In this document: in pieces, positions 36,651 through 59,181 of the stretch
Position numbering within the stretch: the stretch's first letter is position 1
Layout of the letters: every line of letters starts with the position of its first letter
The notes under the pieces: generated by a model
Seen by the model: the letters and a program-made list of their open reading frames with translations, nothing else
Databases searched by the model: none
Told to the model about the DNA's origin: nothing
DNA from: an uncultured Campylobacter sp.
GTDB taxonomy: Bacteria; Campylobacterota; Campylobacteria; Campylobacterales; Campylobacteraceae
Length of the DNA: 64,000 nt
Assembly: GCF_963517995.1 (NCBI RefSeq)
Contig: NZ_CAUQHQ010000001.1
Coordinates: 583-64,582, forward strand
Direction: 5' to 3'
Position numbers and translations under genes: made by a program

Positions 36651-36902
36651 TTTATTCCTTTTTTGTTTCGTTTTGGCGCATACGTCGTTTCGCCGAAATT
36701 TTATAAAATTTACTCGCCGAGACCTGCACCTTTAAGGTGCCAAATTTGAATTAGTCAAATTTAGTTAGATTCTTTTCGTAAAAAACAACCGTTTGAGGTT
36801 ATTTTTTACTTTGTTGTAAAGGGGGTGGGGACTTAAATTGCGCTCTGCATTGCAGTTGCGAAGCGTAGCTGAAGCAAAAGAGCTCCCTTTTTCTTTTTTT
36901 TT

Positions 36903-36987
36903 TTGGGAGAGGAAGGGGCTTTACTTCGCCTGCGGCTCGTAACTGCGAGCAGACCTACTTACGAAGCGTTGCCCCTTTCTCTCCCAA
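36903..36987 (+). repeat. Palindromic intergenic element (17-bp arms)
   Basis: TTGGGAGAGGAAGGGGC (36903-36919) / GCCCCTTTCTCTCCCAA (36971-36987), one G-T; inner CTTCG/CGAAG and GCTCG/CGAGC stems. Confidence 0.75.
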
Positions 36988-37126
36988 GCCCTCTCTAACC
37001 CCACTGCACGTGAGAGGTTGCTGCACTATGCGCAGTTTTATCCGGCGCTGTCGCGCCAAATGTTTTTTAGTTTAACATTTTTGAGGCGCGGGTTTTGGCG
37101 GCTCAAATTTGAACGCAAAGAGCCAA

Positions 37127-37243
37127 GGCGCAGTATTTTTTCTTTAGACGAGGCGGAAATGAGCCGAGCGAGGGCGCATACAAGTAGTATGTAACCGAGC
37201 TTCGGCGAAATTTCTAACGAAGTATAAAGGAAAAAGACAAGCC
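37127..37243 (+). repeat. Rod-shaped structured element, copy C
   Basis: GGCGCAGTA...GACAAGCC ends shared with 57873-57992; nested stems; tip CATAC-AAGTA-GTATG. Confidence 0.75.
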
Positions 37244-37252
37244 GCAAATAGC

Positions 37253-56653: not shown

Positions 56654-57646
56654 TCAAATAGGCAAAACGCGGATATTTGGGCTGAGGTTTTCTTGTAATA
56701 CGTTTTCGATCGCGTATAGCGTGCCCGTTGCGCCGCTCGCGCAGCCGTTGCAAGCGCCCATATACCTGATATAGACGTCAAATTTGCCCTCGGCGTCTTT
56801 TTGCAGATCGAGGATTTCCATATTACCGCCGTCCATCATCAGCATCGGGCGGATATCTCTATCTATGACGCTCTCGATGGCTTTTAGCTGGCCCACGACG
56901 GTCATATTTTCAAAGCTCACGTCGTCAAATTTACCCGCGGCTTGCGCGTCGATGAGGGCTTGCTTTTTCTCCCGCTCCATCTCGGCTCTAGTGTCTGCGA
57001 GGATATCGACGAGATAATACTCGCGCTTTTCGTGTCCGCCCGGACGCACGCAGGATTTGCAAAAGGCGCCCGCTTTGGTGTATTGCGTGATCTCCTCGAC
57101 CGTGTGTAGATCGTTTAGGCGGATGACCTCTTTGATCGTGCCTAGGCTAACGCGCGCACACTCGCACACGATGATCTCGTCTTCGAAATGCTCAGGATCC
57201 ACGCCCTTATACTGCGCTGCGGCGGCCTTGATAACGTCGTAGGCCATGACCGAACAGTGCATCTTTTGCGGCGGGACGGCAGGGACGTCTGGGGTATCGC
57301 GCATGGCTTTTTCCACGTCGATGTTTGTGATTTTGACCGCTTCGTCCACGGTCTTGCCGATGCAAAGCTCAGCCATCGTATCCGAGCTTGCCACCGCAGT
57401 GCCGCAGCCAAAGCTCTTAAATTTAGCGTCCATGATGCGGTCGGTTTTCTCATCCACGAGCCAATACAGCCTCACCGCGTCGCCGCAGCTCTCCGCGCCA
57501 AAATCCGCCACGATAAGCTTGCCGCCTCTTGCTTTTGCCTCGTCCTGCGTTATCTCGCCCATAAATTTGGGATTGTTCATGCGGTTCTGGACGTTTTGGG
57601 AGTATTCGTCCCAAATTGAACCGCCTATTAGATTATTTTTTGCCAT
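56654..57646 (-). CDS. nifU: Fe-S cluster assembly scaffold NifU
   Basis: IscU domain (SCGDA, FGCG, KMHCS), BFD-like CEC...FCKSC, NfU domain CNGC. Confidence 0.96.
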   Translation of the reverse strand: MAKNNLIGGSIWDEYSQNVQNRMNNPKFMGEITQDEAKARGGKLIVADFGAESCGDAVRLYWLVDEKTDRIMDAKFKSFGCGTAVASSDTMAELCIGKTVDEAVKITNIDVEKAMRDTPDVPAVPPQKMHCSVMAYDVIKAAAAQYKGVDPEHFEDEIIVCECARVSLGTIKEVIRLNDLHTVEEITQYTKAGAFCKSCVRPGGHEKREYYLVDILADTRAEMEREKKQALIDAQAAGKFDDVSFENMTVVGQLKAIESVIDRDIRPMLMMDGGNMEILDLQKDAEGKFDVYIRYMGACNGCASGATGTLYAIENVLQENLSPNIRVLPI

Positions 57647-57663
57647 TTTATTTCCTTTTTAGA

Positions 57664-57783
57664 GGCGTTGTCTCGCGAGCGTCTTTGAATGAGCTTGCAA
57701 AAATATCGCTGCGGCAACCTATTTGGTTAGCCTTGCTCATTTTTGCTTCACAACATTCAAATCCATCTCGCGATACTGCCGCC
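57664..57783 (-). repeat. Rod-shaped structured element, copy B (120 nt)
   Basis: Reverse complement aligns end to end with 57873-57992, with compensatory changes. Confidence 0.85.
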
Positions 57784-57872
57784 CACTTCCTTTTAAATTT
57801 AACTCAAATTTGGACTTTTTAAAGCTCAAATTTCAATCAAATTTAACCTCAAATTTGAATGTAAAACAATAA

Positions 57873-57992
57873 GGCGAAGTATTTTGAGATGATTTTGAAT
57901 GTTGTGCGGAAATTTTCGTCCCAAGGCTAGACAGATAGTCTGCCGCAGGGCGAAAAATTCAAACTCATTCAAAAGCGCTCAAAAGACAAGCC
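57873..57992 (+). repeat. Rod-shaped structured element, copy A (120 nt)
   Basis: GGCGAAGTA-TTTTGAG...TTTGAATG...GGC-T-AGAC-AGATA-GTCT-GCC...CATTCAAA...CTCAAAA-GACAAGCC; abuts the nifS stop. Confidence 0.85.
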
Positions 57993-57993
57993 G

Positions 57994-59181
<1,188 letters not shown>

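Follow-up and report, generated by a model that had tools for sequence, protein, structure and literature searches.

Two rods occupy the nifS-nifU spacer

The DNA analyzed here, called the window throughout, is a 64,000-nt stretch of contig NZ_CAUQHQ010000001.1 from an uncultured Campylobacter sp. (assembly GCF_963517995.1). In this source genome (G000), the spacer between nifS and nifU is 347 nt long and holds two rod-like elements, copies A and B, that lie back to back within the following features.

56654..57646, minus strand: nifU, Fe-S scaffold gene, downstream host gene (NifU_proper is the best match, 221 bits, below its cut-off of 273)
57653..57657, minus strand: nifU ribosome-binding site AAGGA (from the sequence; unpaired in the predicted whole-spacer fold)
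57664..57783, minus strand: rod copy A, family R (fold, alignment, and covariance model, 114.3 bits; model bounds 57665-57782)
57784..57872, no strand: AT-rich linker of 89 nt between the rods (two back-to-back 5' leaders with AAATTT repeats)
57873..57992, plus strand: rod copy B, family R, 120 nt (fold, alignment, and covariance model, 120.7 bits)
57994..59172, minus strand: nifS, cysteine desulfurase gene, upstream host gene in the operon (nifS_epsilon score above cut-off)

The preliminary description of this DNA had reported two 120-nt elements here that align end to end. We confirmed both (71% identity over 115 nt by blastn) and found every compensatory stem swap that it quoted. The 3' end of copy B is 1 nt from the nifS stop codon, the nifS mRNA reads the reverse complement of the rod, and copies 96 to 97% identical to it lie elsewhere in the same genome. 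The 3' end of copy A lies 17 nt ahead of the nifU start, and its folding strand is the strand in the mRNA. The linker contains a weak hairpin (57793-57846) and has no counterpart in the empty spacers of relatives.

As RNA, each element has one rod as its predicted fold (-46.8 and -52.7 kcal/mol; z -6.05 and -7.42; none of 200 shuffles as good), with weaker folds for the opposite strands (-39.9 and -41.4 kcal/mol). DNA parameters gave z scores of -6.1 and -5.3, and the opposite strands were again weaker. For the nifS-nifU mRNA, folding predicts that the rods join in a duplex of about 330 nt (-144.6 kcal/mol, z -9.9) that leaves the nifU ribosome-binding site free; such a duplex could be a substrate for processing. 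A promoter and terminator scan gave no signal beyond chance. The rods had been left without a named RNA family, and Rfam 15 agrees: its 18 matches in window positions 57300-58400 were weak and all far under the gathering score, and at 16 further rod loci rRNA and tRNA families alone were matched.

The rod fold covaries and is carried by one strand

The two elements had been proposed to belong to a structured single-stranded family whose fold is under selection. Across 27 aligned copies, 31 of 40 pairs changed on both sides and 91% of cells were paired, a result reached by 0 of 500 shuffles that preserved column make-up, not relatedness; slid-register controls were 33 to 48% paired. The proposal is thereby upheld. 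When 105 distinct copies were aligned to the model, which leans that alignment toward the covariance model, G.T pairs outnumbered A.C pairs (169 versus 51), and therefore one strand is the folding strand. Changes that arose in situ in resident copies went to G.T in 15 cases and to A.C in 9, a difference that is not decisive for the strand. In these resident copies, 566 loop positions carried 48 changes and 1570 stem positions carried 47.

The rod begins with a terminal stem of 3 bp, followed by asymmetric loops. Its conserved unpaired parts are three 3x2 purine loops (GNA opposite RA), an A.G mismatch, one bulge close to the tip, and the tip loop itself, of 5 nt. Near one end, a CGTC/TGTC tetranucleotide is base-paired within the outer module. 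Length is nearly constant (about 116 to 120 nt) despite changed stems and even changed whole interiors, and elements located by their ends alone were nearly always 115 to 122 nt. The 3' end of the element is sharp. Among 153 elements, conservation reaches at least 20 nt into the A-rich 5' flank, which ends in AA, and 2 nt into the 3' flank.

One motif, AGTA opposite GAC, had been likened to loop E of the sarcin-ricin type. Loop E has an invariant bulged G in AGUA, opposite GAA. In the rods, the opposing strand reads GAC, and the G of AGTA pairs Watson-Crick and covaries with the opposite C; the pair is unbroken in 27 of 27 copies (25 G-C, 2 A-T), and the same position has four A-T or T-A swaps among the 105 distinct copies. 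The likeness to loop E thus fails, and a better description of the motif is one GNA/RA 3x2 purine loop with two Watson-Crick pairs and an A.G mismatch. Because purine loops of the GNA/RA kind are stable in DNA and RNA alike, they do not decide the substrate.

Mini-hairpins of about 27 to 45 nt were seen nested in rods at G000 C23, C11, C16, C15, C8, C169, C80, and C42 and at L002, L005, and L006. They occur in either orientation, show no clear duplication, and in some cases are nested twice.

Family R is abundant in one clade and sparse elsewhere

The preliminary description had dealt with the two copies in the spacer. The pair is not unique: about 50 copies per genome occur within one clade, accompanied by a sister family and by core exchange at fixed sites. 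The search for further copies that it had called for, done with an iterated profile, found 48 copies of family R at an E value of 1e-3 or below in the source genome, and the reversed-genome control had 0 matches at E < 0.2. With a covariance model, 78 of 81 genus genomes had matches and 3 had none; at least 23 matches were found in 29 of the 81 (the best 45 per genome being counted) and 1 to 9 in 49. Three complete relatives hold 50, 51, and 62 copies.

Among 146 genomes sampled from the order, 9 matched. The named records with the repeat, among the matches listed, are Campylobacter showae, C. concisus, C. troglodytis, and several Helicobacter species, so that the window is probably from a member of the showae group, and among 80 of 121 loci the R interior was seen solely in Campylobacterales. 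Many matches in these collection scans arose by chance and, including 9 loci, were removed by fold and by inspection. The plasmid collection had no match to the repeat, nor did the viral collection to the initial tip pattern. We found no description of the repeat in the open-access Campylobacter and Helicobacter literature. It was not found in the accessible parts of PMC6567213 and bioRxiv 10.1101/2024.07.26.605372; Supplemental Table 4 of the preprint, on "repeat regions," could list it.

Rods come and go at fixed sites and enter unrelated targets

Comparison of spacers had been suggested as a way to find empty sites and target duplications. Empty sites were found: two elements are present at 6 of 25 nifS-nifU loci (the source genome and 5 close relatives), no rod is present at the other 19, and the spacer measures 15 to 18 nt in 11 of 13 more distant genomes of the genus. 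Target duplications were not found; among 153 elements, flank repeats were no longer than in shuffled pairings. No recent strain-level insertion with exact borders was caught.

The six filled nifS-nifU loci hold different subtypes, or a member of the sister family F2, in the same slot depending on the genome. We extended the slot comparison to 228 element-flank combinations in 77 slots. Orthologous slots whose flanks are at least 85% alike numbered 43, and 28 of them contain a rod pair less than 80% alike; cores have therefore been exchanged at fixed slots. At L518 and L445, the 5' flank is identical and the core alone differs. Conversely, there were 57 pairs of different slots with rods differing at 3 positions or fewer. 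Ordinary ectopic recombination could account for the core exchange.

At G000 C156 near 4039, C61 near 7325, and C59 near 6800, a leader is joined to a bare 3' end (the core being lost) or 3' ends are doubled. These joints are possible excision scars.

Rods also interrupt rRNA and protein genes. Copies lie in intervening sequences (IVSs) of 23S rRNA, in the helix-45 region in genomes G007, G012, and G041 and in the helix-25 region in G012, and further copies lie directly ahead of 5S, 16S, or 23S rRNA. In valS, an in-frame rod occupies one protein loop, with different members in two genera and none in 4 other genomes; guaA has an in-frame rod as well. Prophage records of Helicobacter cinaedi hold single and back-to-back copies. 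In tpiA, one copy supplies the stop codon and has been retained in both clades. The genes neighboring the copies are arbitrary, judging from 314 ORFs near Campylobacterales copies that were clustered and then read by eye. Together, the empty and filled sites, the in-frame insertions, and the rRNA insertions support the nonautonomous mobile element that the preliminary description had offered as one option.

Two neighboring observations concern these targets. In Helicobacter rodentium (L474), downstream of the rod comes a short second copy of the 16S rRNA 5' end, just ahead of the real one. The guaA of one genome in the same order (L077:404-3118) contains inserted GNAT acetyltransferase and methyladenine glycosylase domains besides its in-frame rod.

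The favored explanation and a role in host RNA

The rods are copies of a dispersed repeat that takes up new sites and varies among genomes at the same sites. We consider it fairly probable that this repeat is a nonautonomous selfish element, spread and exchanged as a folded single strand by a trans-acting enzyme that reads its ends and shape, and that it is tolerated wherever a transcript can accommodate a hairpin. The movement mechanism is one that we infer, and a mobilizer was not found. The enzyme would recognize the shape together with the conserved outer module (GGCGAAGTAT ... GACAAGCC), not long terminal repeats. Insertion would take place 3' of A-rich sites ending in AA, and the enzyme may replace resident cores through the short ends, the intermediate presumably being ssDNA or RNA. 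Copies would then persist where the hairpin does little harm: behind stop codons, before ribosome-binding sites, in rRNA IVSs excised by RNase III, and in protein loops.

The best of the competing explanations makes the rods host modules of RNA processing or stability. They would shield transcripts at 3' ends that follow stop codons and at 5' ends ahead of ribosome-binding sites or mature rRNAs, or form RNase III sites, the fold being selected by the host and the copies being shuffled by gene conversion. Placement speaks for it. By simple ORF calls, on which these counts rest, 44 R copies have a gene on the 3' side, and in 39 of them the 3' end comes to within 40 nt of a gene end (30 convergent stop codons and 9 starts); the 5' end comes as close in 2 of 38. 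The copies directly before rRNAs and within IVSs, the sparing of stems in resident copies, and the predicted spacer duplex with its free ribosome-binding site would also suit such modules. However, the same 3' polarity is expected if the 5' leader belongs to the mobile unit, in relatives the operon is expressed with a spacer of 16 nt, and in-frame insertions and arbitrary neighbor genes fit parasitism.

The strand found in host transcripts also tells against a host module. Of the gene-abutting copies, 30 of 39 in family R and 11 of 18 in F2 have their weaker strand in the host mRNA, and the 23S IVS copies that were read had the worse-folding strand in the host transcript in 4 of 4 cases. The purine loops and G.U pairs are lost on that strand. 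Because most host transcripts carry the weaker strand, we argue that the fold was selected during spread rather than in mRNA. This weakens, as the main cause, the noncoding RNA or mRNA-processing module that had been named alongside mobility, and we regard host modules as unlikely. Stem sparing in resident copies and retention of the tpiA copy are nevertheless compatible with a benefit to the host.

Of 144 copies from three related genomes, 99 had the folding strand on the leading-strand template and 45 on the lagging-strand template, a count that covers the matches listed, excludes IVS copies, places the origin opposite an xerH-like match, and is confounded by gene orientation. Assigned by GC skew in G000, the replication strand split 16 versus 12, which is uninformative.

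Candidate mobilizers do not adjoin rods

The preliminary description had noted no mobilizing gene in the window, and we agree. It had also pointed to a HUH/RAYT, TnpB, or reverse transcriptase gene that might lie beside the element elsewhere; none was found among the candidate loci checked. With the R1 covariance model, no rod adjoined any of 30 Y1 loci or 35 candidate-gene loci. Y1_Tnp amounted to one broken remnant (in G000) and one match below cut-off in the 81 genus genomes; in the family where rods abound, it gave 1 match below cut-off in 19 other genomes, and elsewhere in the order it was common (122 of 251 genomes). Y2_Tnp was found in 0 of 81 genomes, with a search control that was likewise without any match, which makes this result uninformative.

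Other enzyme families fared no better as candidates. IS1595 is present in 44 of 81 genomes; its ends differ from those of the rods, and it makes an 8-bp target site duplication (TSD). IS110 was found in 1 of 5 genomes, with no adjoining rod, and TnpB was found in 0 of 5. DUF559 and PF13751 (IS1182-type) were each found in 0 of 81. The one GIY-YIG match lay in a 629-aa frame, which we took to be UvrC from its size, and had no adjoining rod. One reverse transcriptase, a 744-aa protein at L113:91-2325, likewise had none; its sequence resembles an RT-Cas1 fusion, and it lies beside a Cas6-like ORF. Tyrosine recombinases were found at 20 loci, none with an adjoining rod, and the ends of the rods differ from those of integron attC sites, which read RYYYAAC ... 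GTTRRRY. The search for a cognate insertion sequence with the ends of the rods covered IS1595, the IS1182 type, and IS110.

By eye, an IS1595 transposase pseudogene (L112:1400-1950) appears to contain five different mini-hairpin insertions of about 27 to 33 nt, and another IS1595 copy (L111:1790-1830) contains one.

These searches bear on two further explanations. A classical MITE, moved by a DDE transposase, would have the back-to-back composite as its mobile unit and the rods' 3' ends as outer terminal inverted repeats. Back-to-back pairs do occur in the window, in G000, and in H. cinaedi prophage DNA; an end-like sequence lies within 700 nt upstream in 14 of 54 copies, versus 4% of random positions; and distant relatives have near-perfect terminal repeats. 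Yet 40 of the 54 copies have no partner end, the 153 elements showed no TSD, and the absence of PF13751 and the different ends and 8-bp TSD of the resident IS1595 leave no matching enzyme among these candidates. A DDE enzyme acting on duplex DNA would also leave the strand-specific loops unexplained. We judge this explanation improbable.

Still less probable is a REPIN-like element moved by a Y1 HUH transposase (RAYT or IS200 TnpA) that has by now been largely lost or passes through by transfer. The lack of TSDs, the strand-specific bulges, the broken Y1 remnant in G000, and the CGTC/TGTC near one end would suit it, but Y1 genes are almost absent where rods abound and common where rods are rare, no rod adjoins the 30 Y1 loci, and the replication-strand bias runs in the opposite direction. 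The weakest explanation, a multicopy noncoding RNA transcribed from a promoter of its own in the periodic AT-rich leader and binding protein through loop-E-like motifs, has on its side a strong RNA fold and a conserved A-rich leader whose AAATTT periodicity presumably resembles Campylobacter RpoD promoters, but with the loop E reading gone, the promoter scan at chance level, and in-frame and IVS copies and 50-fold copy differences unlike a conserved gene, it is scarcely credible.

A sister family and relatives in other phyla

About 25 copies of the sister family, F2, occur in the source genome. F2 has the ends and length of family R and a different interior. One member is the third rod in the window.

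37127..37244, plus strand: rod of family F2 (same ends and length as R, different interior)

A convergent ABC-ATPase gene has its stop codon 8 nt from the 3' end of this rod. Upstream of it, window positions 36900-37126 contain a GGGAG/CCCC-rich hairpin family and a leader family that are also found upstream of many rods; these repeats form mosaic intergenic arrays. An F2 copy at L116:1501-1617 has an inverted inner segment. In some copies, including L209 and L183, one arm has turned into the perfect complement of the other.

Among the matches listed, records from Legionella, Pseudomonas, Bacteroidota, Nitrospirota, Binatia, Deltaproteobacteria, and Firmicutes contain rods of similar length that share the F2 inner module. 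We judged these cross-phylum relatives from their folds and by inspection; the F2 profile picks up some of them. The R model detected none of them except in Endomicrobium (E 0.007), where one copy has Campylobacter ends. The genes flanking the relatives are unrelated to one another, and among 47 scanned proteins from their neighborhoods (68 ORFs called) there was no mobile-element family. Terminal repeats are near-perfect in the distant relatives, a feature typical of insertion sequences.

In Endomicrobium (L135:556-1640), a low-GC gene of no assigned family lies between grpE and dnaK and is followed by a rod. Pseudomonas and Legionella relatives (L316, L367) lie inside tRNA clusters, with tandem copies in Legionella.

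Tentatively, Campylobacterales may represent one branch of a cross-phylum class of modular mobile elements of fixed length (about 116 to 125 nt) that are recognized by their fold. Such a class would do without a cognate transposase and produce no target duplications, its cores would be swapped like cassettes between fixed chromosomal slots by a structure-reading enzyme, and its insertion into rRNA genes would be one source of IVSs in Campylobacter and Helicobacter.

Comparison with known repeats

Rickettsia palindromic elements (RPEs) are stem-loops of 105 to 146 nt found in intergenic regions, in frame in conserved genes, and in RNA genes, with an uncertain TSD and no mobilizer shown in the accessible parts of the sources (PMC2229807, PMC10969869). 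By analogy with RPEs, matched here by description, the rods appear to work in the same way, as a nonautonomous mobile repeat recognized by its fold: their length is within that range, and they occur in frame in valS and guaA and within 23S rRNA. They differ in having three GNA/RA loops, insertions in rRNA IVSs, and cores that are exchanged at fixed slots and in a terminal stem of 3 bp versus a terminal inverted repeat (TIR) listed as 12 bp in the accessible RPE text.

A second comparison is with the Geobacter short-RNA family of 2009, which in the accessible text is 111 to 116 nt long, intergenic, and multicopy and is described as regulatory RNA, not as mobile (PMC2700814). By eye, the other strand of this family shares a tip-flanking module with the H. 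cinaedi rod, and Geobacter-type loci include variants with the ends or the middle module of the cross-phylum relatives; the tip and ends of the family are unlike those of rods. The R1 model gave weak in-register matches at 3 of 50 Geobacter loci (E 0.004 to 0.93) and one more off the motif, and profile HMMs of the two families did not cross-detect. On these weak tests, the Geobacter family looks like another branch.

ERIC/IRU, Correia/NEMIS, RUP, YPAL, and bcr1 are stem-loop repeats of 100 to 170 nt near gene ends, with compensatory changes in bcr1, and effects on mRNA stability and RNase III processing have been proposed for such MITE-like repeats (PMC2229807, PMC3184786, accessible parts). 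As given there, ERIC, Correia, RUP, YPAL, and bcr1 have TSDs and mostly TA ends or TIRs that match an insertion sequence. For the rods, neither a TSD nor, among the families searched, a cognate insertion sequence with the same ends was found, and we did not place them among MITEs.

GTAG/CGTC REPs and REPINs adjoin stop codons, form dimers, and are sometimes intragenic, and CGTC REPs have no known transposase (PMC3733652, whose accessible main text does not mention Campylobacter). Rods likewise lie next to stop codons, in paired copies, and sometimes within genes. REP stems are given in that text as 5 to 13 bp, in contrast to a single rod of 116 to 120 nt. The repeats of REP/REPIN-RAYT systems are hairpins of 20 to 40 bp tagged by GTAG or CGTC, unlike this rod with its CGTC/TGTC base-paired inside the outer module, and at the loci searched we found no REPtron and no rod-flanked Y1 gene. 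IS200/IS605 elements are biased to the lagging-strand template in the accessible text of PMC6006769, unlike the rods, whose folding strand is mostly on the leading-strand template. Campylobacter 23S IVSs are treated as stem-loops of the rRNA gene, with no link to a dispersed repeat in the accessible text (PMC2801512); rods lie within the helix-25 and helix-45 IVSs of relatives, and the copies in the window are intergenic.

What the rods mean for their hosts

For the question of how palindromic repeats of the RPE and CGTC types move (PMC2229807, PMC3733652), the rods offer a tractable case, with about 50 copies per genome, relatives with low and zero copy numbers, visible core exchange, and a well-defined fold. 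Within one lineage, the family ties dispersed repeats to 23S rRNA IVSs and to in-frame protein insertions, and it reshapes junctions in housekeeping operons, such as that between nifS and nifU. Because F2 modules recur in distant phyla, a mobilizer found in Campylobacterales could explain a widespread class.
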